The notes: a model not told the origin generated them from the letters alone. Counted from the stretch's first letter, positions 694-44,004 are shown. The stretch is DNA of 64,000 nucleotides from an uncultured virus (IMG/VR IMGVR_UViG_3300016476_001224) (IMGVR_UViG_3300016476_001224), one strand, 5' to 3'. Made by a program: numbers and translations.

Positions 694-720
694 AAAAAGA
701 GAGCATTTGCTCTCTTTTTT
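694..720. terminator. Bidirectional intrinsic terminator
   Basis: aaaaaagagagc-attt-gctctcttttt between convergent genes. Confidence 0.8.
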
Positions 721-1352
721 TATTCTAATATTTGAGATAATTTTAAATCTCTTGCAAATGATATACCTGCAACACTTTTCATTATCTCAAACATTTCTTT
801 CTTCTTAAAGAAACCTTCAAATATGGTTTTAATACCATCAGAGTTTTGATAGAGGATCTTTACTTTTAAATTAGGTTGTAATCTACATATAAATTTTTCA
901 TCAATAAGTTCAATTAAATAGGATTGTTCAAATTCAGGACCAACATTAGTTATTGAAGGAGTAAATCCAATCTTTTTCAAGAATGATGTAACATAATCAT
1001 ATCTTTTATATCTACCTACTAATTTAGTTTCAGTATCATAATATGAAAATCTTGATGGTAAACCTCTAAAATCATCTTCTGTTCCTATATGGAAACAATC
1101 ATTATCATCTAATAATAGAGTTAATTTTTCATTTCTTGAAGTTTCAGTAGTTAAGTTATTATTGGTTTCAATTCTATTAGAAATCATATCATCAAATATA
1201 AAATATACTTTATTATTCTCTTGTGATAATCTATCACATTCATCAATAAGAGATTGTTTAATCTCTGAGTTTTTATAATTAAAGTCAATTGGTTCTAATA
1301 CTGGTCTTTCTGCAAAGGAAATAGTACCATCAGGGTTCATAACTATTTTCAT
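720..1352 (-). CDS. Hypothetical protein with internal and C-terminal RxxKLxxLL-type motifs
   Basis: 210 aa ORF; internal RNEKLTLLLD and C-terminal RDLKLSQILE. Confidence 0.75.
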   Translation of the reverse strand: MKIVMNPDGTISFAERPVLEPIDFNYKNSEIKQSLIDECDRLSQENNKVYFIFDDMISNRIETNNNLTTETSRNEKLTLLLDDNDCFHIGTEDDFRGLPSRFSYYDTETKLVGRYKRYDYVTSFLKKIGFTPSITNVGPEFEQSYLIELIDEKFICRLQPNLKVKILYQNSDGIKTIFEGFFKKKEMFEIMKSVAGISFARDLKLSQILE

Positions 1353-1421
1353 AATTATTATATGAAGAATAAGGTTTTTGTTTTAAAAATATAATATATA
1401 GATTATAAAAAAGATATAAAT

Positions 1422-1763
1422 ATGAAACATTTAAAAAAGTTTGAGAGCTTTTCGGTTAATGAGGAAGAAGGATCATTTAGAAAATTCTTTACTGGACACT
1501 CAGATAATGCTGAAAAATTTGGAACTATGAAATCTTTTCTTGTAGATTTAGAAAAGTTTGAAAAAAAGGCAGCAGAAGATGATAGTATTGTTTTCAATAA
1601 AGAGACTTTACTAAAAAAAGCAAAAGAGAATAACTACAAAGGACACTTAGAAGAAAGAGACTCAAGAAGTGGTGGTACATATATTATATATGTTAAAGGT
1701 GCATCTGACTTTGATAAAATTGCAGGAGCTGCAGCACATAAAAGAAATAATCCTTTAAACTAA
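1422..1763 (+). CDS. Hypothetical protein with capsid-targeting-like N-terminal leader
   Basis: Starts MKHLKKFESF; TAATATATA at 1392-1400 upstream. Confidence 0.75.
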   Translation: MKHLKKFESFSVNEEEGSFRKFFTGHSDNAEKFGTMKSFLVDLEKFEKKAAEDDSIVFNKETLLKKAKENNYKGHLEERDSRSGGTYIIYVKGASDFDKIAGAAAHKRNNPLN

Positions 1764-1766
1764 TTA

Positions 1767-1790
1767 AAAAACCACTCAAATGAGTGGTTT
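1767..1790. terminator. Bidirectional terminator, repeated at about 14656-14679 and 25776-25800
   Basis: aaaaccactca-aa-tgagtggtttt. Confidence 0.85.
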
Positions 1791-2197
1791 TATTTATTTA
1801 ATACTTTTTTATCTATTTCATCCAATGAATCAATTCCTTTCTCATTAATTTTATCCAATACATCATCAATAGTAGTATTGTCTAATCTAAAATTCTCAAA
1901 TAATTTTGGTGTAAATCTCTCAACCTCAGGATATAACTTTTGCATTTCACCTGAAATTACTTTATCAGTAACATCAGTTTTACAGAAAATAAAATACTTT
2001 TTAAAAATTGCTTCAATTTTTTTAACTTTATATTCATCTAATCTAACAAATAAATCATCACTATCAGTAAAACCAATATATTCTTGGTCTTTCTCATCTA
2101 AACATTCTGTTAATTCCTCATAAAATGGGTGTACCTCATCTTCTTTATAATCAGGTGTATTTCCATCAACCATTCTAAGTAAGTAAATTCTATTCAT
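1790..2197 (-). CDS. Hypothetical protein with C-terminal DUF6576-like helix hairpin
   Basis: C-terminus IDDVLDKINEKGIDSLDEIDKKVL. Start moved to MNRIYL at 2197 because a host-type promoter lies at 2216-2246. Confidence 0.65.
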   Translation of the reverse strand: MNRIYLLRMVDGNTPDYKEDEVHPFYEELTECLDEKDQEYIGFTDSDDLFVRLDEYKVKKIEAIFKKYFIFCKTDVTDKVISGEMQKLYPEVERFTPKLFENFRLDNTTIDDVLDKINEKGIDSLDEIDKKVLNK

Positions 2198-2215
2198 GTG
2201 GTTATTTTGTTTAAA

Positions 2216-2246
2216 CAAATATAACACTATTTATTAAATCTACAAA
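2216..2246 (-). promoter_or_regulatory. Bacteroidota-type promoter (-33 TTTG, -7 TAnnTTTG)
   Basis: Minus strand TTTG-N19-TATATTTG. Confidence 0.65.
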
Positions 2247-2304
2247 ATTATTTATAACTTTTTTAAAAAATAGTTATATAAAATGTAAATTAAATTGAAA
2301 ATTA

Positions 2305-3834
2305 ATGTTAGTAGAAACAAGTTATTTAACTAATACCAAAAAATTGGTTTGTAGTTATGTTGATAAATCAGGAGATATAAAACTCAAGTACTATGACTGG
2401 GACACACCTATGAAATATGTATCTTGTGAAGATGATGATCCACAAAGACATGAAAAGTTTAGATCTTGGGATGGTAAATCAGTAAAACAAGTTGAAGTAA
2501 ACCACCCTGACAGATATGCCATTTATGAATTTTTGGATTCACTACCAGAAAAAGAAAAGGAAGAAATTTTTGAGTTCAACTTACCTAAGATATATTTTAT
2601 AGATATTGAAACTGAAATTGTAGATGGATTCCCAGAAGCTGCAGATATTAAAGATGCAGATGGTAATATCATTACAGAAGGAGCTGCTACAAAAGTACTT
2701 TCTATTTCTATTGTATATGATGATAAGATAATTCTTTTGGGTCTTAAAGACATGCCAGAAGATATGCAAGAAAGAATATGTAAAAACACTAATAAATACT
2801 TTGAGAAGTTTGGTACAGAATACAAACTAAAATATGTAAAGTATGAAGATGAGTTTGATATGTTGTATGCTTTCTTCAATAAAATGATTCCTAAAATGCC
2901 ATTATTAACAGGTTGGAACTTCTTAAACTATGACTGGTTATATTTAGTAAACAGAAGTAGAAAATTATCTAAATGGATGAATGGTAAAGAATGGAGAATT
3001 GACCCTGCAGTATCATCACCATTAAAAAGAATTAATAAAATGTGGGGTACAGACTTTGAAGTACCTGCACATAGAATGATTTTTGATTATATGCAGTTAT
3101 ATGAAATCTGTGATACTTCTATTAAAGTAAAAGAATCATCATCATTAGACTTTGTTTCCAGTAAACTTGTTGGTGTTGATAAGATTAAATATACTGGTTC
3201 ATTACAAAAATTATATGAGGATGACTTTGAAACCTTTATGTATTATAATGCGGTTGACTCTGTGTTAGTACAGAAAATACATGATGCAAGAAATTATATA
3301 TCAATTGTTTATGCAATCTCATCATTGGCACAAATTAGAATAGTAGATGTTGTTTCACAAATGAATGGTGCTTTAGCATCTTTAGCAATTACTGAGGGTG
3401 TTTTAAGAAACAGATTTAGAGATATGGATAACATTGTACTCTTTAAAGATGAAAGAGGTGATGGTGAATCTACAATTGCAGGTGGTTGGGTTAAAGATCC
3501 TGTTGTTGGTATGAACCAATGGGTAGTTGTTTATGACTTTGCTTCACTATATCCAACAACACAAAGACAATTCTTTATTTCACCAGAGAACTTTGTTGGT
3601 GTACAAAATCCAAATAATAAAGATTTTTGTGATAATGGAAGACCAATTGATAAAGAGAAACATGTTGTTTGTGTAAATGGTGTAGTATTTGAGAAAAGAT
3701 TATCACCAACTCTTAGGATGCTTGAAGATGTCTATGCAGACAGAAAATACAATAAAGGTATTATGATGAAAAAGAAAGATGAACTCAAAGCAGTAATGGA
3801 TGAGATAAAAGAATTAGAAGCTGAATTAGATTAA
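2305..3834 (+). CDS. polB: Family B DNA polymerase, N-terminal subunit of a split enzyme (3'-5' exonuclease plus motif A)
   Basis: ExoI DIETE, ExoII GWNFLNYD, ExoIII YNAVD, GGWVKDP and motif A YDFASLYP. Ends in a fingers helix with no motif B or motif C and is followed by a terminator. Confidence 0.9.
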   Translation: MLVETSYLTNTKKLVCSYVDKSGDIKLKYYDWDTPMKYVSCEDDDPQRHEKFRSWDGKSVKQVEVNHPDRYAIYEFLDSLPEKEKEEIFEFNLPKIYFIDIETEIVDGFPEAADIKDADGNIITEGAATKVLSISIVYDDKIILLGLKDMPEDMQERICKNTNKYFEKFGTEYKLKYVKYEDEFDMLYAFFNKMIPKMPLLTGWNFLNYDWLYLVNRSRKLSKWMNGKEWRIDPAVSSPLKRINKMWGTDFEVPAHRMIFDYMQLYEICDTSIKVKESSSLDFVSSKLVGVDKIKYTGSLQKLYEDDFETFMYYNAVDSVLVQKIHDARNYISIVYAISSLAQIRIVDVVSQMNGALASLAITEGVLRNRFRDMDNIVLFKDERGDGESTIAGGWVKDPVVGMNQWVVVYDFASLYPTTQRQFFISPENFVGVQNPNNKDFCDNGRPIDKEKHVVCVNGVVFEKRLSPTLRMLEDVYADRKYNKGIMMKKKDELKAVMDEIKELEAELD

Positions 3835-3839
3835 AAGTT

Positions 3840-3864
3840 AAAACCCTCCATAAAAGAGGGTTTT
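3840..3864. terminator. Bidirectional terminator
   Basis: aaaaccctc-cataaaa-gagggtttt. Confidence 0.75.
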
Positions 3865-4188: not shown

Positions 4189-5856
4189 ATGTCATTAAAA
4201 AAAGACCTCTTAAAATATAATCCAAGAAGAGAACAGCAAGAAACCTTGGATTTTATTGATGCAGAATATAAAAAAAATCCACTTAATAAATTCTTCTTAT
4301 TAAACCTTCCAGTTGGTACTGGTAAAAGCCACTTAGCACTTATGCTTGCTGATTGGTATAGAAAAAATGTCAATAGAATGGCCAGAGTAGATATTATTAC
4401 AAATAGTAAACTTTTACAAGACCAATATGCTGATACATATGATTCAATATGTGATTTGAAAGGTAAAGAAAACTATGAGTGTGAAGAATATGCTTGCTCT
4501 TGTGCTCAAGGTGCTGAATTTGCAAGATTAAATAAAACTTCTTGTGAAAGTTGTCCTTATAACTCTGCAAGAGACTCATATATAAATGGTGGTATCTCAC
4601 TTACTAACTTCTATCTTTATATATTATATGCAATGTATAATCCTAAATTGATGGAAGCAAGAGGTGCAAGAGTATTAATTGTTGATGAAGCACATGAGTT
4701 TGATGATGTAATGACTGGGTTTGTATCTATAAAGATAACAGAAACAATCATTAAGAAGTTTAAGTTTTCCAATGAACCTGTTCTATTAAAGGAATTGAAA
4801 CAAATTTCAACTATAGCTCATTATGTTGAGTTTTTAAAGTATCTAAATACTGAAATTGTATCAACTATGGAACAAATGGAAAAAGGAATGTATAAAGCAC
4901 CTAGAGATGTTGTTTCTGATAAAAGAGATTTAAAAATATCAAAAGTTCTTAATGTTAAGAACAAAGATGTTAAGATGATGCAATTAATGACTGATCTTAA
5001 ACAATATCAGTTAAAAATTGAGATATTCTTAAAAGAGTATAAAGACAATCCAAATAACTGGGTATTGGAAACATCTTATAATGAAAAGTTAAGACAGAAA
5101 GAATTGTCATTGGAACCAATATGGGCTTATGACTACTTAGACAAGTATGTTTTCTCACACTATGATATGGTTTTTCTAATGTCAGGTACTATTTTAGATA
5201 AGAATTTATTCTGTCAGTTAAATGGATTAGATGTTACAAAGGCAGTTTATTATTCTATTGAATCTCCTTTCCCTGTTAAGAATAGACCAATCTATTATAT
5301 GCCAATTGGCAAGATGTCATTTAAACAAAAAGAAGAAACATTTGAGAGGTACATTCCATATATTAAGAAAATACTTGATAAGTATAGTACTTCTAAAGGT
5401 GTAATTCATACAAACTCATTTGAGTTATCAAACTGGATTCAAAAATCTATAAAGGATAAAAGGTTGATTTTTCATGATTCAACTAATAAAGATGAAATGT
5501 TAAGAATGCATTGTGAGAGTGATAAACCTACAGTAATTGTTTCACCATCTATGGACACTGGAGTTAGTTTTGATGATGATTTGGCAAGGTTTCAAATTAT
5601 TGCTAAAATTCCTTATCCAACTTTAGGTTCTCAGAAAAACAAAATGAGACAAAGTAATAATCCTGATTGGTATGCTTGGAAGACAGTTTCAGGAATTATA
5701 CAGATGAGTGGTAGACCAATTAGATCTAATAAGGATTATGCAGATACTATTATTATAGATGGTTCATTTGGTGATGTGATGAAACATAGTTCACAATTTT
5801 TACCTGATTGGGTACAAAATGCCATTAAGAGAATTAACATTAAAGTTACTTCATAA
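4189..5856 (+). CDS. DinG/XPD-like superfamily 2 helicase
   Basis: Q-motif PRREQ, Walker A PVGTGKS, DEAH, SGT, QMSGRPIRS, and a Cys cluster compatible with an Fe-S site. Confidence 0.88.
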   Translation: MSLKKDLLKYNPRREQQETLDFIDAEYKKNPLNKFFLLNLPVGTGKSHLALMLADWYRKNVNRMARVDIITNSKLLQDQYADTYDSICDLKGKENYECEEYACSCAQGAEFARLNKTSCESCPYNSARDSYINGGISLTNFYLYILYAMYNPKLMEARGARVLIVDEAHEFDDVMTGFVSIKITETIIKKFKFSNEPVLLKELKQISTIAHYVEFLKYLNTEIVSTMEQMEKGMYKAPRDVVSDKRDLKISKVLNVKNKDVKMMQLMTDLKQYQLKIEIFLKEYKDNPNNWVLETSYNEKLRQKELSLEPIWAYDYLDKYVFSHYDMVFLMSGTILDKNLFCQLNGLDVTKAVYYSIESPFPVKNRPIYYMPIGKMSFKQKEETFERYIPYIKKILDKYSTSKGVIHTNSFELSNWIQKSIKDKRLIFHDSTNKDEMLRMHCESDKPTVIVSPSMDTGVSFDDDLARFQIIAKIPYPTLGSQKNKMRQSNNPDWYAWKTVSGIIQMSGRPIRSNKDYADTIIIDGSFGDVMKHSSQFLPDWVQNAIKRINIKVTS

Positions 5857-6153: not shown

Positions 6154-6155
6154 AA

Positions 6156-6760: not shown

Positions 6761-6765
6761 ACTCT

Positions 6766-17599: not shown

Positions 17600-18001
17600 A
17601 TGAGTATAATTGTAAAAAATTCACAACTTACTAATGATGCAATTGCAGCTCTTAATACATTAATTGAGTTAGATATTAATGCAGGAACTGCTTTTAAATT
17701 AACAAGAATTATTAAAGAGTTATCCTCTATTGTTGATGATAAATTAAAAATGGAGAAAAAAATCTTTGATAGATGGGTTGAGAAAGATGAAAATGGTGAC
17801 CCAGTTATTCCTAAAAATCCTGATGGAACTGCAGTTGAAGGTGCAGTAAACATTACAAATGTTGAAGAGTTCACAAAAGAAATGAGTGAATTAATGGATA
17901 TTGAAAGTGAAATTCCATTTGATGCTATAGCCTTTGAAGATTTAGGTTTAACAACTGCAAAAGTTAAAGATTTAATAAAAGTAGAGTTCTTATTCTCTTA
18001 A
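17600..18001 (+). CDS. Hypothetical protein
   Basis: ORF with likely start MSIIVKN; followed by hairpin aaaaagtccaa..ttggactttt. Confidence 0.7.
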   Translation: MSIIVKNSQLTNDAIAALNTLIELDINAGTAFKLTRIIKELSSIVDDKLKMEKKIFDRWVEKDENGDPVIPKNPDGTAVEGAVNITNVEEFTKEMSELMDIESEIPFDAIAFEDLGLTTAKVKDLIKVEFLFS

Positions 18002-18084
18002 TCAAAAAGTCCAATTTATTGGACTTTTATTTTTTTATAAGTGATATTATATTTTTAATATATACTAAAAAAGTAATTTTATAG

Positions 18085-25457: not shown

Positions 25458-25613
25458 ATGTCATTTGCAAGAGGTTGGGGAAAAGATGGTGATAAACACA
25501 GAAGAGAAGATGATTTAGTTAATTATATAAAGAAGTTACATAAGTCAAATAAAAATATCTGGAGAAAGATTAAAATACTAAAAATACTTAATAGTGAAGA
25601 GTTCAACAAATAA
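25458..25613 (+). CDS. Small protein with C-terminal tag
   Basis: Likely start MSFARGWG after AAAC-N18-TATAAT; ends RKIKILKILNSEEFNK. Confidence 0.55.
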   Translation: MSFARGWGKDGDKHRREDDLVNYIKKLHKSNKNIWRKIKILKILNSEEFNK

Positions 25614-25791
25614 TCCTGGTATAGTTTGGTTACCATATACAATACAAGCAATGGCTGCAACTTGGTCAGGAACTCCTAATTTAAGTAAGTCAATAACCAG
25701 TAGATATTCAATAGTAACAATTGAAACAAAAAATGAAATAAGAAAAAGAAAGATTAAAAATATATTAAAAGAAGAAAACCACTCAATTTGA
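25594..25791 (+). CDS. Mini-protein: major-capsid C-terminal-like fragment plus C-terminal tag
   Basis: GTG start; PGIVWLPY-x20-SRYSIV, then RKRKIKNIL. Confidence 0.6.
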   Translation: MKSSTNNPGIVWLPYTIQAMAATWSGTPNLSKSITSRYSIVTIETKNEIRKRKIKNILKEENHSI

Positions 25792-25800: not shown

Positions 25801-26283
25801 TTATAACATATGGTCTGATGCAGATAATATTATATCTCTAACTGTATTAATATTTTCCTCAATTTCTGAACCATCAACTATTTTATATACATAACTACTA
25901 TTTATTATTAAAAATCCATATTCTTCAATAATCTCAAAAAATTCAATTTTTTGGTCAATTTTTAGATGTTCTTTAAAATAGGATAGATATTTATTCAATT
26001 CATTGGTTTTTAAACTATCATATTCTTTTTTAAATCTTATGGAAGGCATTGTATCAAAAAAATGATTAGATATACATTTTGTTAAATCTTCATTACTAAG
26101 TGATTTATATTTTTTTGAAAAATCTAACTTATAAACATAACCATACATTGACCACCATTTTTCAGCATCCTTTTTAATATTTTCATCAGAATCTCTATCA
26201 ACACCTCTTGAGTTTGCAGATGATAGTTCAATTAAATATTTATCAGTATCTTCAAAACTCTCAAATACTTTTAGATATTTCAT
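25801..26283 (-). CDS. Hypothetical protein with leader
   Basis: MKYLKVFESFE. Confidence 0.7.
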   Translation of the reverse strand: MKYLKVFESFEDTDKYLIELSSANSRGVDRDSDENIKKDAEKWWSMYGYVYKLDFSKKYKSLSNEDLTKCISNHFFDTMPSIRFKKEYDSLKTNELNKYLSYFKEHLKIDQKIEFFEIIEEYGFLIINSSYVYKIVDGSEIEENINTVRDIILSASDHML

Positions 26284-26795
26284 TATTTAGTAAATTTCAA
26301 TTTGTAAAGTGTTCTATAAATTAATGCAACAACTTCATCAATAATATTTTGTAAATGTGTATCTTCTGCAGATATAGCTTTTCTACCATGTTTTACAAAT
26401 TCAGCTAAACCTTCAAAGTACTCAATTTTCTCTTTAGTTCTTGTATCATTTGTATCAATTGTTTCATAACCATCAACAATACCATATTGACCTTGGTAAG
26501 TCTCAATTAAATCATCAATTAATTCTAATACACCATCATAGTAATCATTTAAAGCAGTATGTGCAGCATGTGAACCCATTTCACCATTTACTTGTAAGTG
26601 ATAGATGTGTGCCATCTCTCTTGATTCAAATAATTTAGAGAAAAGAGCAACAGGTGTACCTTCTTGAGTTTCAGGTTGTGGTTCAGGTTGTTCAGTCTTA
26701 CCAGTTTCCTCTGGTTGTTTAATATTTTGAGGTAGATTAGCTAAAGCCATTTCCTCAGCTTCATATACTTTTCTAATAGTAGAAAACTTTTTCAT
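26283..26795 (-). CDS. Ferritin/Dps-like four-helix bundle protein (DUF5856-like)
   Basis: AHIYHLQ, HTALNDYYD, DDLIETYQGQYG, LQNIIDEV...TLYKLKF. Confidence 0.7.
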   Translation of the reverse strand: MKKFSTIRKVYEAEEMALANLPQNIKQPEETGKTEQPEPQPETQEGTPVALFSKLFESREMAHIYHLQVNGEMGSHAAHTALNDYYDGVLELIDDLIETYQGQYGIVDGYETIDTNDTRTKEKIEYFEGLAEFVKHGRKAISAEDTHLQNIIDEVVALIYRTLYKLKFTK

Positions 26796-27144: not shown

Positions 27145-27145
27145 T

Positions 27146-32891: not shown

Positions 32892-32939
32892 AGTGTATAT
32901 ATTAAATATTTTTAGTACTTTTGTAGAAACAAATAGTAT

Positions 32940-33398
32940 ATGTCAGGACACAAATTGAATAATTCAGATGCGCTAAAGTTTATGTTTGCAGGTAATTCAA
33001 CATTTACTGTTGTTAATACCAAGACAGAAAACAGATTTACTTTCAAAGTGAAAAAGTCTAAAGATAAAGATAGTAATCTTTTCTTTGTTAGTGTTTTAAC
33101 TGGTCCTGATAACTATACTTATATTGGAACTGTGGTTGAAGGTATTTACAAACATGGTAAGAAATCTGTTATTTCAACAGATGCACAATCAGTTAGAGTA
33201 TTTGATTATGTTTTAAACAAGCTTAAATTAGGTAAACTTCAAGAATTTGTTGAGGTTTGGCATGAAGGTACTTGTGGTAAATGTGGTAGAGTATTGACAG
33301 TTCCATCAAGTATTGAAAATGGTTTAGGACCAGAGTGTATTAAGTCTCTTTCAAAACAAGAAAAAAGAGACAAATTTTTATCTTTAATTTTATCATAA
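32940..33398 (+). CDS. DUF6011-like zinc-ribbon protein with C-terminal tag
   Basis: WHEGTCGKCGRVLTVPSSIENGLGPEC; ends RDKFLSLILS; TACTTTTG at 32916-32923. Confidence 0.7.
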   Translation: MSGHKLNNSDALKFMFAGNSTFTVVNTKTENRFTFKVKKSKDKDSNLFFVSVLTGPDNYTYIGTVVEGIYKHGKKSVISTDAQSVRVFDYVLNKLKLGKLQEFVEVWHEGTCGKCGRVLTVPSSIENGLGPECIKSLSKQEKRDKFLSLILS

Positions 33399-33916
33399 TG
33401 GATTTAGTATCAGTAATAGTTTCAGGATTAGCTCTAGTGGCTATAGTTTTTGTTTCAGTTAGTTTATTTAGATTATCAAGGAAAAGAAAGAATATAGGTT
33501 GGGATGTTAAACAAGGTATTAGATGTTATGCCTGTAAAACAGACTTATTAGAAGATTTATCTGAAACAGATAGATATGAGAAACTAATGGATGTTTATGA
33601 GAAAGCATCAAAAGACCCAAAAAATGAAGATTTTCATTTATGTGTTTCTTGTAATAGGAATGATAAATTAGAAGGAATAACAAGTCATAAATTCTTTAAT
33701 GTACATAGACTTAATAAATTAAAAAAATTATTATATTCAAGAAAATCTGATAAAATTCAAATGATAATGATAATACTAATGATTGTATTTCAATTTATTG
33801 ATGGATTAATCAAACACTATTTCAAGATACACACAATGATTGGTTCATTATATACTATTTTTTATTGGTTTATATGGTATTATAAAATGAGATTATCATT
33901 TGGTGAAAAAAAGTAA
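33398..33916 (+). CDS. Membrane protein with two CxxC pairs
   Basis: N-terminal and C-terminal hydrophobic helices; CYAC and CVSC; internal RNDKLEGI. Confidence 0.7.
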   Translation: MDLVSVIVSGLALVAIVFVSVSLFRLSRKRKNIGWDVKQGIRCYACKTDLLEDLSETDRYEKLMDVYEKASKDPKNEDFHLCVSCNRNDKLEGITSHKFFNVHRLNKLKKLLYSRKSDKIQMIMIILMIVFQFIDGLIKHYFKIHTMIGSLYTIFYWFIWYYKMRLSFGEKK

Positions 33917-34016: not shown

Positions 34017-34187
34017 TTATGCTTTTGCCTCAGCAACAGAAGCAGCTCTATAAGGAGTTACTAATTTTTTGATTTCACCTAAAGCTTTACGAGCATCAGC
34101 ATCTGATTTTTTAGTTGTTTTAGCATGGTTAGCTTCAAAAGTAGCCCATAAAGCAGCTAATTGTTCAAAAATTTCTTGTTTGTTCAT
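34017..34187 (-). CDS. Histone H1-like (Hc1-family-like) small nucleoid protein, 56 aa, absent from ORF track
   Basis: MNKQEIFEQLAALWATFEANHAKTTKKSDADARKALGEIKKLVTPYRAASVAEAKA*; ARKAL.EIKKL...YR..S pattern. Confidence 0.7.
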   Translation of the reverse strand: MNKQEIFEQLAALWATFEANHAKTTKKSDADARKALGEIKKLVTPYRAASVAEAKA

Positions 34188-37168: not shown

Positions 37169-37759
37169 ATGAACATTTGGTTTACATCTGATACACACTA
37201 TCATCATGCTGGAATTTCTGGTCCTGAATTGTCTAAATGGAAGTCTGGTTATAGAACTTTCAAAACAGTTGCAGAAATGAACCTATGTTTGATAGAAACT
37301 ATCAACAAATATGTAAAAGAAGATGATATACTTTATCATCTTGGTGACTTTTCTTTTGGTTCACCTCAAAAAATGTATGAGTTCAGAAAATCATTAGTAT
37401 GTAAAACTATACACTTGATAAAAGGAAACCATGATGAAATTTTTGATGAATTTCATGCTGAGAAAAGAGCAAGATTATCATTTGATCCATTTGAACTATT
37501 TGCAAGTGTTAGAGATACTTATACTGGTTACATTGGTAAAAACAAATTCCACTTATCTCACTATGCACATAGAGTTTGGCCAAGTTCACACAAAGGTGTT
37601 ATTCACCTTTATGGACACTCTCATGGTAGTATTTCAGATTATGGTAAATCAATGGATGTTGGTATAGATGCACACAAAGAGTTTAGACCTTTCCATATCA
37701 ATGAAATATTACAGATTATGGAAAAAAGAGAAATTGTTAAAGTTGATCACCATGTCTGA
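37169..37759 (+). CDS. Calcineurin-like metallophosphoesterase
   Basis: FTSDTH, HLGDF, KGNHD, SHY, YGHSH, DVGID; TATCTTTG at 37142-37149. Confidence 0.9.
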   Translation: MNIWFTSDTHYHHAGISGPELSKWKSGYRTFKTVAEMNLCLIETINKYVKEDDILYHLGDFSFGSPQKMYEFRKSLVCKTIHLIKGNHDEIFDEFHAEKRARLSFDPFELFASVRDTYTGYIGKNKFHLSHYAHRVWPSSHKGVIHLYGHSHGSISDYGKSMDVGIDAHKEFRPFHINEILQIMEKREIVKVDHHV

Positions 37760-37937
37760 TTTGAAATTAGAAATATCTAAGTTAAAACTCTTAATAAATG
37801 CTAAATATGGTGCATATGGTAATAAAAAAGATACTATGTATTATGAACTATTAAGAAAGAGGAAAAAGATTACTGGTATGCTTTTGAAGATAGAGAATAG
37901 AAAGAGAAAAATAGAAAAACTACTATGCAAAATATAG
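37752..37937 (+). CDS. Mini-protein: PolB motif-B-like fragment plus C-terminal tag
   Basis: MSDLKLEISKLKLLINAKYGAYGNKKDTMYYEL...RKRKIEKLL; start overlaps the upstream stop. Confidence 0.6.
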   Translation: MSDLKLEISKLKLLINAKYGAYGNKKDTMYYELLRKRKKITGMLLKIENRKRKIEKLLCKI

Positions 37938-38248
37938 AAGATAGATTTGAAATGGGTACCTGTGTTGTTTGTATAAAAGAATATGAAACACTAAAAGTTA
38001 GAAGTCACTACAACATAAAAGGTTGTGGTGACTTGACTTGGAATGCTGCCACTGATAAAGAAGGTTATGGATTTTGTGTTGAAGATGAATTTGCATCCAA
38101 TAAAAAAGATTGGTGGAACCTTGCCTATTCAGAAAGAGTTAAATGGTATTACTTTACAGAGGAAGAAATGAATGAATATTTTATTACACAAGAAGAGGAC
38201 TTTATAATATATTCAAGAGATCAAAAATTAAAAGAATTAGGTATATGA
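37925..38248 (+). CDS. Hypothetical protein with C-terminal tag
   Basis: Ends RDQKLKELGI. Confidence 0.75.
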   Translation: MQNIEDRFEMGTCVVCIKEYETLKVRSHYNIKGCGDLTWNAATDKEGYGFCVEDEFASNKKDWWNLAYSERVKWYYFTEEEMNEYFITQEEDFIIYSRDQKLKELGI

Positions 38249-38688
38249 ATACAAATGAATTAAGAGAATTACTTAATGAAGTTTTCTTTGAAGATAAATA
38301 TGAGATTACTGAAACTGATTACACAAAATATGATGAAGATTTAGTAAGATTTAATGTAAAAGTTTATTCAAAGAAAATGAATAAACATATGACAATGATT
38401 GTAATACATAATTATATAATAGGTACAACAATATGTAAAGATCTTTGGATAATGGATTGGTCTCTACCTAATCAAAATTACTATATGAGAATACCTGGAA
38501 CAAGTTATAAAAGAAATACTAAAGATGTTGGTGATCCAAAATACTTTTTAATGTTATCAAAAGATAAGATGAATGATATTTTACTCATAAATGAATTAAA
38601 TAATAATTTAATTAGTGATATGAGAGAAATGGATAAAAACCCTATGACTATGACAAGAGACTATAAATTAAAAAACTTAGGAATATGA
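38245..38688 (+). CDS. Hypothetical protein with C-terminal tag
   Basis: Ends RDYKLKNLGI. Confidence 0.75.
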   Translation: MNTNELRELLNEVFFEDKYEITETDYTKYDEDLVRFNVKVYSKKMNKHMTMIVIHNYIIGTTICKDLWIMDWSLPNQNYYMRIPGTSYKRNTKDVGDPKYFLMLSKDKMNDILLINELNNNLISDMREMDKNPMTMTRDYKLKNLGI

Positions 38689-39302
38689 TAGATATATTTG
38701 GAAATGAACCTATTAGGTTAGATAGATTAGTATGTCATTCTGGTGGTGCAGAAGGTTCTGACACATATTGGGAAACCATAGGTGCTAATTATGGTGTGAA
38801 AACTAAAGCATATTCATATAAGACAAAATATCACACATCTGAAAACAAAGTAGAAATTAGTGATACTGATTATGAAGAAGGTGTAAAAGAAATAACTAAA
38901 GCAAACAGAACATTAAATAGATATGGTATTCATAAGTTTATGAACTTACTTGCAAGAAATTGGACTCAAATAAAATACTCTGATGAAGTATTTGCAATAG
39001 GAACTATAGTAGAACCAGGTAAAAAAGGTTCTAAAGGGTTTTATAATAAATCAGAGTTTCAAGTAGTAGATGGTGGAACTGGTTATGCAGTTCAAATGGC
39101 AATAAATAATGGTAGGTTTGTTTATGTATTTGACCAGGATAAAGACAAATGGTTTAGATGGTCACATACATCATTAAGGTTTATTGAAGTCACAAAACCT
39201 CTTAAAATAAGTTATGAGAACTTTGCAGGAATTGGCACAAGAGAGATTAAACCTAATGGAATAAAAGCAATAGAAGAAGTATATAAAATAACATTTAATT
39301 AA
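38685..39302 (+). CDS. SLOG-superfamily-like nucleotide-binding protein
   Basis: CHSGGAEGSD, LARN, GGTGYAV, FAGIGTR. Confidence 0.6.
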   Translation: MIDIFGNEPIRLDRLVCHSGGAEGSDTYWETIGANYGVKTKAYSYKTKYHTSENKVEISDTDYEEGVKEITKANRTLNRYGIHKFMNLLARNWTQIKYSDEVFAIGTIVEPGKKGSKGFYNKSEFQVVDGGTGYAVQMAINNGRFVYVFDQDKDKWFRWSHTSLRFIEVTKPLKISYENFAGIGTREIKPNGIKAIEEVYKITFN

Positions 39303-39306
39303 AAAC

Positions 39307-39702
39307 ATGGAAAAAGATACAATTATAGTTGAAATGACACCTTTCTTATTTGAGGATGGTAAAACTTATTATTTTGATATTAGAAAAGGTTATAGTAATA
39401 CATATCACTATTTATTTGTTTATAAAAAAGTTGAAATTACAACAGAAAGAAAAACTTGGTTTGGTCTTGGTAAAACTGAAACAAAAGTAACAACTGAATA
39501 TCAGTGTATAAATAAGAATAATGGTGCTTTAGTAAATATAAACTTAAATACAAGAGAAGTTAAAAGTGAAATAAAAAATGTCATTGTTGCCAATCAAGCA
39601 GTTACTAAGATAAAAGATTGGGATGGATTTGTTGGTGATATACCAACAGATGCAAAAATGGCTTTATTAAGGGATTCAAAGTTAAATGATTTAGGTATAT
39701 AA
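39307..39702 (+). CDS. Hypothetical protein with C-terminal tag
   Basis: Ends RDSKLNDLGI. Confidence 0.75.
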   Translation: MEKDTIIVEMTPFLFEDGKTYYFDIRKGYSNTYHYLFVYKKVEITTERKTWFGLGKTETKVTTEYQCINKNNGALVNINLNTREVKSEIKNVIVANQAVTKIKDWDGFVGDIPTDAKMALLRDSKLNDLGI

Positions 39703-40130
39703 TGGAAAGATCAGCAGGAATAATTATAATATTAAATAACAAGAAATTACTTTTAAGTCATCCAACTAATTCAAGATGGAATAATACTTACTCATTTCCT
39801 AAAGGTGGAATTGAAGAAGGTGAAAACCAAATTGAAGCAGCCATAAGAGAACTTAAAGAAGAAACTTCTATTGAAGTAACAGAAGATATGATAATTGATA
39901 AAGAGCCAATTATTGTTCTTTACAATGACAGAAAAGGTAAAATATACAAAGAAGTATATTTATTCAAAGTTTATATAAATGATGTAACTGAAATTGGTTT
40001 AACCAGTGAAACTTTACCAAAAGAAATGTTACAAATTGAAGAATTAGATTGGTGTGGGTTTTTAGATAAAGAAGAAGCTAAAAGTAAAATATTCTACAGA
40101 GTAGAACACTTATTAAACTTAATTGACTAA
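39702..40130 (+). CDS. NUDIX hydrolase
   Basis: Nudix box GGIEEGENQIEAAIRELKEETSI. Confidence 0.9.
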   Translation: MERSAGIIIILNNKKLLLSHPTNSRWNNTYSFPKGGIEEGENQIEAAIRELKEETSIEVTEDMIIDKEPIIVLYNDRKGKIYKEVYLFKVYINDVTEIGLTSETLPKEMLQIEELDWCGFLDKEEAKSKIFYRVEHLLNLID

Positions 40131-40158
40131 GTAAGATATAATAAAGAAAAACTTTATT

Positions 40159-40542
40159 ATGACTACTATTGACTTTGATTATAACTACCAACAACCAAGA
40201 ATTGAATTAAATTTAGATAATCCAATTTTTGTATTTTATATATGTGTTAATGGATTCTCAAGACAAAGAGCAGAGGAATATATGTATCAAATTAGAAGTC
40301 AATTTGATATATATAGTAATATAACAATGTGGATTGTAGCTACTGATGAACCAACAAGAATTGAATGTGTTTATGATGGTAAAGGTAGAACTAAGGATTC
40401 TGAAATTGCTGGATTGATTGAACAGATAAATGAAAGAATTACAGTGTTAGGACAATCCCATACATTTGAAGATTTCAAAATAAATATAAGAGATTGGAGA
40501 ATTGATAAAATAGTTAAACATCTTAATGAAGAAGACAAGTAA
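40159..40542 (+). CDS. Mini-protein: portal clip-domain-like fragment plus C-terminal tag
   Basis: VFYICVNGFSRQRAEEYMYQI...MWIVATDEPTRIECV; RDWRIDKIV near the C-terminus. Confidence 0.6.
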   Translation: MTTIDFDYNYQQPRIELNLDNPIFVFYICVNGFSRQRAEEYMYQIRSQFDIYSNITMWIVATDEPTRIECVYDGKGRTKDSEIAGLIEQINERITVLGQSHTFEDFKINIRDWRIDKIVKHLNEEDK

Positions 40543-40876
40543 AAAAGAAAAATATGATGTAGTCAAACGTGAATTAAACTTTGAGTTTATAGAATGGTAT
40601 GACTATTATGATTATTATGATACTGATTATGATTGGTATTATGATGATATGAATGATTTTTCTTATATTAAGAAGGAATTTTATGAAGAGAAATTACATG
40701 GTCCTTTCTTTAGAAGATCAAAGAGTACAAGTCATTATTTTCCATATAGTATAATTGATATGAATTCCTTTTACTCAAAACAAGAAAGAAGAAATAAAAT
40801 CATAGATGAACTTTTAGGTTATTCAAATCCTAAAGTTACATACAAACCAACATTTGCAGATATATGGAAAGGATAA
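40526..40876 (+). CDS. Tyr/Asp-rich protein with tag motif
   Basis: WYDYYDYYDTDYDWYYDD; RRNKIIDELLG. Confidence 0.7.
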   Translation: MKKTSKKEKYDVVKRELNFEFIEWYDYYDYYDTDYDWYYDDMNDFSYIKKEFYEEKLHGPFFRRSKSTSHYFPYSIIDMNSFYSKQERRNKIIDELLGYSNPKVTYKPTFADIWKG

Positions 40877-41283
40877 CACCAAATATGATTAAAAGACTTG
40901 ATAAAAATCAAGTCTTTGTTTTTGGATCAAACAGACAAGGAAGACATGGTAAAGGTGCAGCTTTGACTGCTAAGAATAAGTTTGGTGCTATCTATGGTCA
41001 AGCAAAGGGATTGCAAGGTCAATCATATGCTATAGTAACAAAAGAATTGAGAAGTAACTATAAACCTGTTACTTTAGATGAAGTTAAAGAAGGTATAGAT
41101 AATTTTATTATATTTGCAAAAGAGAATACTGATTTAACATTCTATGTAGTTGAAATAGGTTGTAATTTAGCTTATTTTACAGTTGAACAGATTGCACCTC
41201 TTTTTAGACCAGCATTAAGATTGAAAAATGTTTATCTACCTCAAAGGTTTATTGATAATTTACAAACAGGATTTACTATTTAA
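40864..41283 (+). CDS. Conserved phage protein, macro-like (A1S_2505-like)
   Basis: VFVFGSN..GRHG.GAA, G.QGQSYAI.T, FYV.EIGC..A.F....IAPLF. Confidence 0.65.
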   Translation: MERITPNMIKRLDKNQVFVFGSNRQGRHGKGAALTAKNKFGAIYGQAKGLQGQSYAIVTKELRSNYKPVTLDEVKEGIDNFIIFAKENTDLTFYVVEIGCNLAYFTVEQIAPLFRPALRLKNVYLPQRFIDNLQTGFTI

Positions 41284-41290
41284 AAAAGAT

Positions 41291-41509
41291 ATGGAAACAA
41301 AAGGAAAATTTAAAGTTGTATTTGAAGGATTTCAAAATGAACAACAAGCAAGAGAGTTTGCACAATGGTATTCAGGTTCAGGAGAACAGGATTCTGGAAT
41401 TTGGTTAGAAGAACATTCTGATGTTACCGGTGCATATGTTGAGAAAATTAACAAAGTAAATGAAAACAATGAAATCATTGTACCTTTAAAGATTTACAAA
41501 AAGTTATGA
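41291..41509 (+). CDS. Hypothetical protein
   Basis: Likely start METKGKF; WYSGSGEQ. Confidence 0.65.
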   Translation: METKGKFKVVFEGFQNEQQAREFAQWYSGSGEQDSGIWLEEHSDVTGAYVEKINKVNENNEIIVPLKIYKKL

Positions 41510-41748
41510 TGAAAAAGGTTATGTGTATCAAAAATACCATAGAGTTTGAGAATGATGTCATAGTAAGTGATATGGTTGAAGTTGGTAAAATATATGATAT
41601 GGAACATATAATTTATGGTGATGATAATTCTTTTGACTTATATGATTGTCTTATTTATGACAATGACAATATTTGGAGATTACCATTAAATTTCTTTGAA
41701 CCTTTAGATGAATACAGAAGTAGAATTATAGATAATATTTTAGAATGA
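41506..41748 (+). CDS. Small protein with C-terminal tag
   Basis: KKVMCIK...; ends RSRIIDNILE. Confidence 0.7.
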   Translation: MMKKVMCIKNTIEFENDVIVSDMVEVGKIYDMEHIIYGDDNSFDLYDCLIYDNDNIWRLPLNFFEPLDEYRSRIIDNILE

Positions 41749-42179
41749 ATAGAGAAAAACTAAAAGAACTAATAGAAAAAGAAGGAAATTCATTAGAGTG
41801 GGATTATACCTGTTCTAATGGAGTTATTATTAGTTGTTCTATTCATAGAAATAATGTATTTGCTTTATGTGGTTATATTACGCTAACTAAAGACAATTTA
41901 TTATATGGAATTGATTATGATGATATTAATATAAGCGCACATGGTGGTTTAACATACCAAGGATATGATCAAAATGAAAACTATGTAATTGGATTTGATT
42001 GTGGTCATTATGGAGATTTAACACCTTATTTCTTATTTAAAGAAGACTTTCCATTCTATTCTGATGGTGAATATAGAGATATGCAATATGTAAAATCAGA
42101 ATGTGAAAGTATGGCTGAACAAGCATCAAAATTCAGTAAGTCAATTGAAAGATATAATAAAATTAGTCAGATTATTTAG
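41745..42179 (+). CDS. Conserved phage protein (CGY..HGGLTY..GFDC.H) with C-terminal tag
   Basis: Motifs as named; ends RYNKISQII. Confidence 0.75.
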   Translation: MNREKLKELIEKEGNSLEWDYTCSNGVIISCSIHRNNVFALCGYITLTKDNLLYGIDYDDINISAHGGLTYQGYDQNENYVIGFDCGHYGDLTPYFLFKEDFPFYSDGEYRDMQYVKSECESMAEQASKFSKSIERYNKISQII

Positions 42180-42822
42180 TAAGTAATTCTGGTGTAATAG
42201 TTTTTGAAAATACATCAATCATTCTTTCTGAACCACCTCTTGCAGTAATTTTTTCATCTTTGATGATATTAAATACTTTAGTTGTATTTTCTAAATCAAT
42301 ACTAATATTAGTATTTTGAACTTTTACTCTAATGTCATTAAGTTGTTTATAATTAAATCCATTTCTATCAGGTTTACCTTCCCAAGTAATATTATAGTTA
42401 CTATTATTTTCATCTTTACAAAATAATATAATGCTACTAATAAATGTTTGACGATAAGTAAAAGAAGGATTATAGTTACCATATAATTGAAAAGCATGTG
42501 GATATAATCTTAACTTCTCACCTCTTAAAGTAATTTCAATTTCATCACCTGTTTTAATAACATTTTTAACTTCAATAATTATTTTAGTATTGAACTTTTT
42601 ATATGATAAATCTGTTTTTGTTATATCTTTACCATAAGCTTGTAATTTAGTAATTACATCATTATACATTTCAAGAGTTTTATTGAAATCAAATTCTCCT
42701 GTATATTTAAGTGTAAATTCATTTAATTTTCTTTCAATAGAAAATCCTTCATCTGTAAATTCTACAAAATAATCTTCAAGTTCCATTGAACTACTTTCAT
42801 TAAACTTTTTTAAGTGTTTCAT
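42172..42822 (-). CDS. Leader-bearing protein of the D.GF paralog family
   Basis: MKHLKKFNES..LEDYFVEFTDEGFSI; TTAATATATA on minus strand at 42828-42837. Confidence 0.7.
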   Translation of the reverse strand: MKHLKKFNESSSMELEDYFVEFTDEGFSIERKLNEFTLKYTGEFDFNKTLEMYNDVITKLQAYGKDITKTDLSYKKFNTKIIIEVKNVIKTGDEIEITLRGEKLRLYPHAFQLYGNYNPSFTYRQTFISSIILFCKDENNSNYNITWEGKPDRNGFNYKQLNDIRVKVQNTNISIDLENTTKVFNIIKDEKITARGGSERMIDVFSKTITPELLTK

Positions 42823-42870
42823 ATTTGTATATATTAAAAATTATATGTATATTTGTAGAAATAAAAAGAT

Positions 42871-43119
42871 ATGAAACTAATATTTGAACATCACTGGGGT
42901 GGAGAACCTTGTTCAGGAACTGATATAATTCCTTTTGAATATTCATCCAAAGAAGACTTTGTATTAATGATTTTGGATAAATTTAATTCAAAGTTTTGGA
43001 AAGATAATCATTTCTGTGAATTATTTGGTTCATATTTTTACAAAGATGATATAGACAACTTAGAGTATAATGTTTATACTTTAGAAGAATGGTTTGAAAG
43101 AAAAAAATATAAATTTTAA
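42871..43119 (+). CDS. Hypothetical protein
   Basis: 82 aa; TATATTTG at 42848-42855. Confidence 0.7.
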   Translation: MKLIFEHHWGGEPCSGTDIIPFEYSSKEDFVLMILDKFNSKFWKDNHFCELFGSYFYKDDIDNLEYNVYTLEEWFERKKYKF

Positions 43120-43130
43120 AAAATATCAAT

Positions 43131-43301
43131 ATGTACGAGACTATCAATGATTATATGCAAAATCCTAATATGGATACTAATAAATTAAATGACTTATTAA
43201 CAATGGCAGAAGATTTCAAAAATCAATCTGAACCATTATTTTGTCAGACATTTACTAAAAATGTTGATGAAAAAGAATTTATAAATGACTTACCTTTCTA
43301 A
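43131..43301 (+). CDS. Small acidic protein ending in an SSB-like DLPF tail (56 aa, absent from ORF track)
   Basis: MYETINDYMQNPNMDTNKLNDLLTMAEDFKNQSEPLFCQTFTKNVDEKEFINDLPF*; fills the gap exactly. Confidence 0.65.
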   Translation: MYETINDYMQNPNMDTNKLNDLLTMAEDFKNQSEPLFCQTFTKNVDEKEFINDLPF

Positions 43302-43302
43302 T

Positions 43303-44004
43303 ATGTTTGAAGCAGACGGAGATATGGGAATATATGATGTACCAAGTTGGATAAGTGATTTTGAACCAAAGAGAGCACTTAGGGAATTAAAGATTTTAAT
43401 GATTACTACAGATGATATTAAATTTTCAGTATCACCTGAGAGATTAGATGTTTATAAACCAGAGTTAGATTTCTTAAAAATTAACTGCCCTGATGATGTT
43501 ATAACAGGTTCATTTGCTTTAAATCTTTATAATCTTATTAATAGAGATACTAATGACATTGATATTCTTATCAAAGATAAAAATAGATATAGTTACTACA
43601 ATGATGAACAAGGATATGGTGATGTAGGTTTATCAGAAAATAGATTAGGATATAAATATCATATACACAGAAAAGAAGTTAAGATTAATAATAACTTTTT
43701 ACAAAGTTTATTATTTCCTATTATTCATACAATTAATACTTTAATAAGATTTTTTGGTAATGAATATAACTTCAAAGTTGATTATTTTATAGATGAAGGA
43801 GTTAGATTTAATACCTTTGAATATAAAGGTCACACTTATAAGATACATTGTCCTATACAAATAATGGAACAAAAGTTAGATATGTTTCTTAATGATAGTA
43901 ATAATACACATATACATCTTAAACACAAGAAAGATTTATTTGTAGTTTTTAAACAAATTCAATTTGACCAATTTAAGAAAGGTAACAAAATTGAATTAAT
44001 TTAA
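43303..44004 (+). CDS. Nucleotidyltransferase-fold protein
   Basis: ITGSFAL...RDTNDIDIL, KVDYF; likely start MFEADG. Confidence 0.65.
   Translation: MFEADGDMGIYDVPSWISDFEPKRALRELKILMITTDDIKFSVSPERLDVYKPELDFLKINCPDDVITGSFALNLYNLINRDTNDIDILIKDKNRYSYYNDEQGYGDVGLSENRLGYKYHIHRKEVKINNNFLQSLLFPIIHTINTLIRFFGNEYNFKVDYFIDEGVRFNTFEYKGHTYKIHCPIQIMEQKLDMFLNDSNNTHIHLKHKKDLFVVFKQIQFDQFKKGNKIELI

Follow-up and report, generated by a model that had tools for sequence, protein, structure and literature searches.

Short peptides shared by otherwise unrelated proteins are known from several systems. Microcompartment encapsulation peptides are amphipathic helices found at either end of unrelated cargo and sometimes between domains, and clamp-binding tails, such as those of T4 gp43, gp55 and gp33 and the PIP box, follow a polar-x-x-aliphatic-x-x-hydrophobic-hydrophobic pattern. 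The F-box and BC-box adaptors of eukaryotic viruses form expanded families in which a variable bait is joined to an unvarying short helix that docks on degradation machinery, MecA and the SspB XB tail are adaptor elements of AAA+ proteases, and degrons of the ssrA and Prc types need a free C terminus. In phage T4, the capsid targeting sequence (CTS) is, in the part of PMC5694885 on which we draw, an N-terminal propeptide of 10–20 residues that is cleaved from late head proteins and brings unrelated phage proteins to one destination. Here, we analyzed a 64,000-nucleotide stretch of DNA from an uncultured virus (IMG/VR IMGVR_UViG_3300016476_001224), referred to in full as the window, in which open reading frames (ORFs) end in an amphipathic helix of the form R-[DEN]-x-K-[IL]-x-x-[IL]-[LGI], referred to as the tag and numbered from its Arg at position 0. 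The tag was found at the C termini of 10 of the 80 ORFs in the window, of 175/968 in the phage record LR745206 and of 114/655 in the record G001, with shuffled sequences yielding about one.

Like the CTS, the tag is a short portable peptide on unrelated phage proteins; it is, however, C-terminal or internal, apparently non-late and present on more than 100 proteins per genome. With clamp tails it shares the 1-4-7-8 spacing (D/E/N at +1, I/L at +4, I/L at +7 and L/G/I/F at +8) and the terminal or loop position, but it has an invariant Arg, aliphatic rather than aromatic residues and a long helix, and is absent from the expected clamp partners. Encapsulation peptides are likewise terminal amphipathic helices on unrelated cargo, from which the tag differs by its invariant Arg, its phage context and its mostly tiny orphan cargo. 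The viral F-box and BC-box adaptors provide an analogy only, as bacteria have no cullin system and the baits considered here are unrelated folds, not repeats. Clp adaptors (MecA, SspB and, in the relevant part of PMC6873191, SPO1 Gp53) combine a small target-binding protein with a short docking element, as would the bait and handle proposed below. They are, however, single proteins acting on the ATPase N-domain, whereas here more than 100 proteins share the putative element and the phage ClpC has no N-domain. The UVR (UvrB/C) motif PF02151, a two-helix hairpin with FExAAxLRD, was rejected as an identity for the tag, given that 0/74 tag segments match it in Pfam and that the hydrophobic register after RD differs.

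Orphans make up most genes of the largest phages. The tag unites 14–18% of the genes in several megaphages as one functional class and serves as an entry point to their common partner.

Definition and range of the tag

The comparison set included LR745206, LR756502, LR756504, LR756501, LR756500, G001, G002, G003, G004, G006, G007, G011 and Tunturi_5, all read in stretches of 20 kb or less. ORFs were called from ATG in each stretch separately, with genes cut by borders and GTG or TTG starts being missed. Just two of the tag-negative records are complete relatives, the others being a fragment and a distant phage, and G003 is a 271-kb fragment.

The original prediction, made from the window alone, had listed 15 peptides, all of which lie in frame in the named ORFs. 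Its strict consensus, R-x-x-K-(L/I)-x-x-(L/I)-(L/G), fits seven C-terminal copies and not the others, as +3 is not always K and +8 may be L, G, I or F. The last 25 residues of ORFs were searched with the relaxed pattern R[DNEKSY].[KRI][LIF]..[LI][LGIV]. In the window it matched 10 of 80 ORF ends (shuffle mean 0.1, maximum 3 in 2000 shuffles) and 0/698 internal windows. As this pattern was fitted to the listed peptides, the other genomes serve as an independent test, and there it matched 112/968 ORFs of LR745206 (shuffle mean 1.4) and 62/655 of G001 (0.9). The enrichment at C termini is thus above that expected from composition.

A score matrix was then learned on LR745206 and G001, with a tag being called at a score of 12. 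At this score, 289 of the 1623 ORFs of the two genomes are tagged (the 175 and 114 given above), compared with 1.1 in shuffles. Position 0 of the tags found with the matrix in these two genomes is Arg throughout, save one Cys. The tags have I or L at +4, I, L or V at +7, L, G, I or F at +8 and, in 73%, K at +3. The Arg lies 10 residues before the stop in 123/293 copies and 9–16 residues before it in most, with 0–15 residues following the motif. T at -5, K, L or I at -4 and E at -2 often precede the tag, the mean net charge of which is +1.2.

The same score yielded 29/361 in G003 and 65/951 in LR756504, and 1/1052 in LR756501, 1/679 in LR756500 and 0/214 in G004, these three being tag-negative. 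Partial samples, taken from stretches chosen partly as tag-rich, gave 74/361 for G002, 28/110 for G006, 39/125 for G007 and 8/29 for G011. When LR756504 was given its own matrix, the count rose to 138/951, with 0–5 in shuffles and 4, 0 and 1 in three negatives. A DNA pattern run over 17 whole records found 11–78 matches in 12 of them and 6 in G003, with 0–4 in controls and 0–4 in G004, LR756501, LR756500 and Tunturi_5. A strict DNA pattern matched 85 stretches in IMG/VR, which is the sole basis for the range beyond the records examined. A tblastn search of cultured phages with one tagged window protein gave just three weak chance matches. Pfam holds no family for the tag itself and the PDB returned 0 sequences, the profile of 34 residues having little power; a DUF6011 match in the Pfam scan of tags reflects the zinc finger that precedes the tag. 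The observation of a shared tag is certainly real, and larger than first reported.

In tag-negative LR756501, two neighbouring small genes (L265:17504-17653 and 17984-18184) carry weak Arg tags (scores 11.4 and 11.7) that were perhaps acquired from a tagged lineage.

Tag copies in the window

The tags of the window and the elements and genes associated with them are as follows (coordinates from the first letter of the window; conservation refers to positions 0, +4 and +7 where these are named).

726..752, minus strand: C-terminal tag RDLKLSQIL of ORF 720-1352 (210 residues); score 16.3, 0/+4/+7 kept in 4/4 orthologues
1110..1136, minus strand: internal tag-like RNEKLTLLL of ORF 720-1352; score 15.1, Arg kept in 1/4, LR745206 orthologue reading RDFNLTEIL
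4189..5856, plus strand: DinG/Rad3-type helicase with the tag as an inserted extra helix (Pfam, PHROG, DinG/XPD fold match, model)
4924..4950, plus strand: internal tag RDLKISKVL, residues 246-254 of the helicase, in an insertion of about 19 residues; overlooked in the original prediction
25563..25589, plus strand: tag RKIKILKIL close to the end of ORF 25395/25458-25613; score 10.0, 0/+4/+7 kept in 2/2 close orthologues
25594..25791, plus strand: small tag-ended ORF copying C-terminal motifs of the major capsid protein (PGIVWLPY...SRY) by alignment; probable GTG start
25741..25767, plus strand: tag RKRKIKNIL; score 22.5
32916..32923, plus strand: TAnnTTTG element upstream of tagged ORF 32940
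33366..33392, plus strand: tag RDKFLSLIL behind the DUF6011 zinc finger of ORF 32940-33398; 4/21 orthologues end before the tag
33656..33682, plus strand: internal tag RNDKLEGIT after a CxxC in membrane-anchored ORF 33398-33916; 0/+4/+7 kept in 19/19 orthologues at 34% mean identity
37142..37149, plus strand: TAnnTTTG element heading the tag-rich gene run 37169-42179
37899..37925, plus strand: tag RKRKIEKLL of the ORF ending at 37937; score 20.7
38216..38242, plus strand: tag RDQKLKELG(I) of ORF 37925-38248; kept in 17/17 orthologues
38656..38682, plus strand: tag RDYKLKNLG(I) of ORF 38245-38688; kept in 4/4 orthologues
39670..39696, plus strand: tag RDSKLNDLG(I) of ORF 39307-39702; kept in 7/7 orthologues
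40489..40515, plus strand: tag RDWRIDKIV of ORF 40159-40542; Arg kept in 13/14 orthologues, the LR756501 homologue being shorter and without tag
40790..40816, plus strand: tag RNKIIDELL of ORF 40526-40876, 19 residues before its end; kept in 8/8 orthologues
41716..41742, plus strand: tag RSRIIDNIL of ORF 41506-41748; score 16.2, no orthologue among the loci compared
42150..42176, plus strand: tag RYNKISQII on MazG-like (PHROG) ORF 41745-42179; G003 orthologue without tag
43381..43407, plus strand: N-proximal internal RELKILMIT of ORF 43285-44004; score 6.5, 0/+4/+7 kept in 11/11 orthologues at 37% mean identity

Of the three internal copies originally proposed, RNDKLEGI and RELKILMI are thus conserved in all orthologues, but RNEKLTLLL has its Arg in only one of four.

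The tag as a movable module

Among pairs of G001 and LR745206 orthologues in which either is tagged, both are tagged in 44/47. The tag is nonetheless missing from some orthologues in tag-positive phages, namely four of DUF6011 proteins and the MazG-like protein of G003. Some proteins carry two copies, and 32 internal copies reach a score of at least 14 (shuffles, 0–1). In DinG, the fold of which in the window matches DinG/XPD, the insertion of about 19 residues is shared by 24 of the 29 helicases aligned, with identities as low as 43%, and absent in G004, LR756501, LR756504 and Tunturi_5; LR756500 is ambiguous. The model places the tag in an additional helix (241-254), which lies between two long helices where a helical hairpin has its tip. 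UvsW has a separate tag-bearing insertion in 2/6 cases (LR745206 and G002). Over 87 conserved families, the tag occurs only in DinG, UvsW, one uncharacterised family and one weak case; two matches of score 12–16 in tag-negative LR756501 indicate the level of chance for long proteins. As conserved internal copies and helicase-loop insertions exist, a free C terminus is not needed, and a free-end degron of the ssrA or Prc type was rejected, the 32 internal copies being accompanied by tails of 0–15 residues after the motif.

A model of one tagged small protein, built from 22 sequences, places the domain of residues 1-90 with a predicted local distance difference test score (pLDDT) of about 90 and the tag helix with about 50, showing, at the level of prediction, a helix that stands free of the preceding domain. 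Sequence comparison shows the tag as a module that is added or lost gene by gene and that sits at C termini, at N termini and in loops.

The tag also has dialects. At +1, D or E is found in 100/157 tags of LR745206 and 30/33 of G003, whereas K is found in 45/83 of LR756504 (vs 12/157 in LR745206, p 2e-15), where +4 is I in 82/83 tags (vs 87/157 in LR745206) and the consensus is R-K-x-[KIR]-I-x-x-L. G at +8 accounts for 67% of G007 tags and 1% of those of LR756504. If the tag co-evolves with one reader, such a concerted shift across unrelated genes would be expected.

Selection on the peptide

Relative to the background of the same genes, codon usage is unremarkable at Arg 0 (p 0.51), Asp +1 (0.43), Asn +1 (1) and Ile +4 (0.57). 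Skewed codons are seen at Ile +7 (ATA, p 1e-6) and at Gly or Leu +8 (p 0.005-0.007), as expected where the start of the next gene overlaps. Same-codon fractions are mostly at background from 0 to +6, with moderately higher values at +7 and +8. An overlap with the following gene is seen for 150 of 285 tagged genes, and 51/285 face a convergent one. As the codons vary freely while Arg is invariant, the tag is selected as a peptide, which supports the protein-level selection that had been proposed.

Tagged proteins, relatives and timing of expression

The tagged proteins are small, with a median of 105 residues, and 285/289 are below 250. When the tag is removed, the 175 tagged proteins of LR745206 fall into 174 BLAST clusters, in agreement with the statement that the carriers are unrelated; 7/175 have a membrane helix and 120/175 have no BLAST match in G001, LR756504 or LR756501. 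Recognisable carriers include helicases, nucleotidyltransferases, a MazG-like enzyme, riboflavin kinase and membrane-anchored proteins. Two acyl-carrier-like proteins, an S-adenosylmethionine lyase and a riboflavin kinase are tagged at LR745206 L055:14697-15026, G001 L110:4349-4639 and G002 L384:623-1192 and L387:4088-4759.

The window has 27% G+C and encodes T4-like replication genes. Its DnaB is 79% identical to that of LR745206 (635 kb) and 76% to that of LR756502 (642 kb), both uncultured phage records, with lower values for LR756501 (44%, 735 kb), LR756504 (40%, 636 kb) and LR756500 (34%); among cultured phages, the best identity is near 30%. These similarities suggest a Mahaphage-type huge phage. 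TAnnTTTG boxes, which we take to be the -7 consensus of the Bacteroidota primary sigma factor, precede several window genes and fit a Bacteroidota host. For comparison, the four largest genomes of PMC7162821 are placed, in the part of that study used here, in the Mahaphage clade, with predicted Bacteroidetes hosts.

A second short peptide, an N-terminal leader with the pattern [KRM]-[YH]-[LI]-K-x-[FY]-[NEK]-E-F, is presumably CTS-like, as in T4. It is found on 14 window ORFs (1422, 5980, 6156, 13732, 26878, 36330, 42172 and others) and on 114/968 ORFs of LR745206. The leader is probably a capsid targeting sequence, and the TT[TA]ATATATA found upstream is probably a late promoter. Leader and tag never meet on one protein: none of the 187 leader proteins of LR745206 (0/114, p 5e-11) and G001 (0/73, p 6e-7) is tagged, nor is any of the 14 in the window, as had been stated, and the same holds for proteins of up to 200 residues. 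In LR745206, TAnnTTTG lies upstream of 35/84 tag operons, 7/69 leader operons and 42/258 others, while the late-type element is found upstream of 2/84, 40/69 and 65/258, respectively, and the promoter context in G001 and G003 agrees. In LR756504, tag operons have the late element in 0/29 and TAnnTTTG in 3/29 (vs 90/418), with no enrichment. The tagged genes are thus apparently early or non-late, as judged from promoter context; the label 'early' holds for LR745206, G001 and G003, but the host-type element does not bear it out in LR756504. The tag itself was rejected as a capsid targeting sequence on its position, which is not N-terminal, on its absence from leader proteins and on the promoters of tag and leader operons.

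Miniature copies of phage structural proteins

BLAST showed tagged proteins matching pieces of core phage proteins. Profiles of 87 conserved families were compared with 646 tag-trimmed proteins, with reversed sequences and 1657 untagged small proteins serving as controls. Fragment matches were found for 15/646 (reversed, 1), 14 being to the major capsid protein (Gp23) or the prohead protease-scaffold (S77) and one to the ClpC UVR motif. The untagged controls gave 17/1657, of which seven were capsid or protease, two of these being internally tagged and three of low complexity. The capsid fragments tile residues 6-50, 88-128, 131-283, 335-379, 400-532 and 493-555. In LR745206, 6 of 7 capsid or protease fragments are tagged, compared with 195/831 other short ORFs (p 0.001).

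Window ORF 25594-25791 matches a profile of seven capsid C-termini with an E value of 7.7e-5, the next unrelated window protein being at 0.73. The tag of this capsid C-terminal mimic follows SRY or, in other relatives, lies between two capsid motifs. One tagged protein is a copy of the terminase ATPase, and the tagged gene upstream of ClpC encodes a minimal tail tube/Hcp fold (Z 11.9 and root-mean-square deviation 2.0 over 89 residues to 7yw0, with dozens of tail tubes next). Capsid, tail tube and helicase/RecA ATPase are among the proteins for which bacterial immune sensors are reported in parts of PMC12803255 and PMC11087589. Capsid mimics seem to be a clade-wide trait.

Untagged capsid pieces are located at LR756501 L265:16342-16932, L212:4998-5899 and L272:2326-2892, LR756500 L370:6962-12704 and G004 L358:9996-10745.

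A second tag in a related lineage

LR756501 carries D-P-Y-G-E-E-[DNE]-W (DPYGEExW) in 88/1052 proteins, compared with 0–1 in genomes having the Arg tag. The motif is often preceded by R-[VI]-[FY]-[ST]-x-x and is placed after leaders, repeated internally or found two residues from the end (examples: L262:5891-6127, L272:12409-16034 and L111:11314-11850). The capsid C-terminal mimic of LR756501 is homologous to the tagged mimics of LR745206 (E 6e-4) and LR756502 (E 1e-4) and ends in DPYGEEDW; three further capsid or protease fragments of LR756501 also end in a tag of this type. Two related lineages thus place different tags on the same mimic, so that labels can arise and be swapped. The two tags are, nonetheless, not exact equivalents: many DPYGE proteins begin leader-like, and 20/43 of their operons have the late element. 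No comparable third tag at C termini emerged when LR756500 and G004 were searched de novo. No description of either tag in phages was found in the literature, in which a degenerate motif is not findable as text and of which supplementary tables were outside the scope.

Search for the reader

The search for a reader of the tag considered genes common to LR745206, G001, G003 and LR756504 and missing from LR756501. These include ClpP, ClpS, a J-domain protein, a kinase, NUDIX enzymes and one uncharacterised gene. ClpS is found in 10/13 tag-positive records (those without it being three partial ones, of 281-344 kb) and 0/4 tag-negative ones, the negatives being few and not independent. ClpC is found in 12/13 tag-positive records and, in those inspected, has no N-domain and starts at the post-N-domain linker; the ClpC of LR756501 has the N-domain but not the M-domain, and LR756500 has no ClpC. 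In 6/6 inspected loci of one sub-lineage, and in LR745206, the gene immediately upstream of ClpC is conserved and tagged. The co-occurrence of N-domain-less ClpC and ClpS with the tag is suggestive only. A phage ClpC adaptor is known in SPO1 Gp53, which, in the part of PMC6873191 concerned, uses Arg94, Val87 and Leu95. A predicted complex between the tag, ClpC (residues 10-348) and ClpS scored 0.01 against a mark of 0.32, with controls that did not fold, and counts neither way.

Three candidates were rejected: ClpP as a reader tracking the tag, as it is also present in LR756500 and G004; a PF18894-like protein that lacks HExxH and also occurs in LR756501, which is tag-negative; and an uncharacterised protein of 151-157 residues, also present in tag-negative G004 and without Atlas match. 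We propose the Clp system of the phage (ClpC, ClpP and ClpS) or the ClpC of the host, taken jointly, as a tentative reader against which the odds still stand; a different protein, of phage or host, could just as well be the reader.

The PF18894-like protein (G001 L087:14031-14462), in which the HExxH site reads EQExD, is found in 11/17 records and is, by its sequence, likely an inactive peptidase. The phages also encode a quality-control set that consists of N-domain-less ClpC, one to three ClpP, ClpS, DnaK, GrpE, a J-domain protein, a rhomboid and small proteins with UVR motifs, of which one is tagged (G001 L101:4643-6775, L109:754-1512, L089:370-654, L103:8736-10619 and L108:1690-2322; LR745206 L078:2777-3475 and L079:17769-18326).

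Proposed mechanism and alternatives

That one reader protein co-evolves with the tag is, we infer, likely. The original proposal of a signal read by one partner thus receives indirect support from the 174 families, the modular gain and loss, the helicase-loop insertions and the lineage shift; its degradation variant is not supported in so far as a degron with a free C terminus is meant. As to what the reader does, our preferred reading, with a probability of about 0.45, is that of a bait plus handle, in which the tag would be a portable docking helix for one partner, coupled to bait or effector domains. The helix core (R at 0, I/L at +4, I/L at +7, L/G/I at +8) would dock on one surface of this partner, and the variable small domain would capture a target. 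In the recognisable cases, this domain may copy phage capsid, prohead protease, terminase or tail tube, presumably the kinds of proteins that host immune sensors detect. The handle would then carry the catch to a common machine, where it would be neutralised or remodelled, the first-choice machine being the N-domain-less phage ClpC with ClpP and ClpS, or host ClpC. We regard as doubtful the wider proposal of a genome-wide counter-defence, in which well over 100 miniature proteins, including tiled copies of the phage's capsid, prohead protease, terminase and tail tube, catch immune sensors and other host proteins and use the helix common to them all to deliver these to an unfoldase that no longer has its N-domain, the tagged proteins being interchangeable substrate selectors, and in which sister lineages do the same with DPYGEExW. 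If the bait reading is true, the tag would represent programmable protein capture in a bacterial virus, together with a list of what host sensors see. The swap of tags between lineages bears on the evolution of short linear motifs in prokaryotic viruses, and the helix is possibly usable as a portable targeting tag for Bacteroidota.

Several points weigh against this reading and need to be considered. Recognisable mimics account for only about 2% of the tagged proteins (15/646 vs 17/1657 of the untagged), and Pfam and PHROG scans named very few tagged proteins, most being without any family. Low-complexity matches to the capsid profile were dropped before the enrichment of tagged fragments was counted, and this enrichment is not significant in G001 (2/3, p 0.14) and marginal in LR756504 (3/5, p 0.03). 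Untagged capsid or protease fragments exist in LR756501, LR756500 and G004, so that mimics do not need the tag. The tags in full-length DinG and UvsW are unexplained by baits alone, and the DinG and UvsW of LR756504 do without them. As for Clp, tag-negative G004 has an N-domain-less ClpC and ClpP, LR756500 has ClpP, and no ClpC was seen in the tag-positive fragment G003. As the negatives are few and not independent, the co-occurrence has little power. A tagged gene next to ClpC is also nothing unusual where 17% of genes are tagged. The dialects could, alternatively, have been spread by recombination between tails.

Among the alternatives, the tag could be an address label that docks early proteins on a replication scaffold, a compartment or a membrane site, much as encapsulation peptides do in microcompartments, leaving targets unaffected. 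The range of the carriers, from helicases, nucleotidyltransferases and the MazG-like enzyme to riboflavin kinase and membrane-anchored proteins, would suit such a label, as would the amphipathic, positively charged helix and the strict exclusion from leader proteins, which resembles two alternative addresses. We nonetheless find it unlikely, as most replication proteins (polymerase halves, DnaB, primase, single-stranded DNA-binding protein, clamp loader, ligase, RNase H and topoisomerase) lack the tag, no scaffold gene tracking the tag appeared among the gene-presence comparisons, and an invariant Arg favours a pocket over bare lipid. Less likely again is a degron or stability switch, by which an adaptor would remove tagged early proteins at the early-to-late change or shield them from host proteases. 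The confinement of the tag to non-late genes and to mostly small, fast-turnover families is in line with such a switch, and the phages encode ClpC, ClpP, ClpS, DnaK, GrpE and a J protein, yet a free C terminus is unnecessary, unlike in ssrA- and Prc-type signals, some proteins are doubly tagged and most early enzymes are untagged.

Each copy of the helix might instead oligomerise its own protein, with the likeness between copies stemming from tails spread by recombination. An amphipathic helix of low-confidence placement on its own monomer, the lineage dialects and a certain over-representation of identical codons at +7 and +8 can be read in this way. This we hold improbable, as Arg has no conserved acidic partner (+1 being D/E in most lineages and K in LR756504), its codons are at background, two helicases have separate insertions and the acidic, non-helical DPYGEExW replaces the tag on a homologous protein. 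Even less credit is given to a sliding-clamp tail by which tagged proteins ride the clamp, an idea prompted by D at +1, I at +4, I at +7 and L at +8, which echo the spacing of the PIP box and of T4 gp45 binding, and by the presence of the tag in two DNA helicases. The C-half of the polymerase has its own T4-type tail (VMDIFG, TLSLF, SSLF), the polymerase is untagged, as are RNase H, ligase, sigma factor and clamp loader (each scoring below 8), aromatics are rare at +7 and +8, membrane-anchored proteins are tagged, and a clamp-like gene is also found in tag-negative LR756501 and G004. A search with the gp45 family found no clamp, this clamp-like gene having been picked by position and similarity only. 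Finally, a DNA or RNA element, serving translation coupling or as a recombination cassette with the peptide as a by-product, is largely refuted and retains hardly any probability. Overlap with the next gene in more than half of the tagged genes and the skewed codons of Ile +7 and Gly +8 are what speaks for it; against this, AGA/AGG/CGN use for Arg is that of the background, second codon positions are fixed while third positions vary, 51/285 tagged genes have a convergent neighbour, and internal in-frame copies lie hundreds of bases from any start.

Other observations

Two genes that lie far apart encode the halves of the family B DNA polymerase (window 2305-3834; LR745206 L061:10568-11992), the C-half ending in a T4-type clamp tail. 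Other window proteins include an Hc1 histone-like protein (34017-34187), a DUF5856 ferritin-like protein (26283-26795), a SHOCT-domain protein (48702-49601) and a protein with a DUF6576 tail (1790-2227). A protein of 1906 residues with G-x-W-x-x repeats at its end is encoded at 52353-58073, and a conserved 97-residue protein of the relatives (G001 L088:15537-15830) resembles the end of this large protein.

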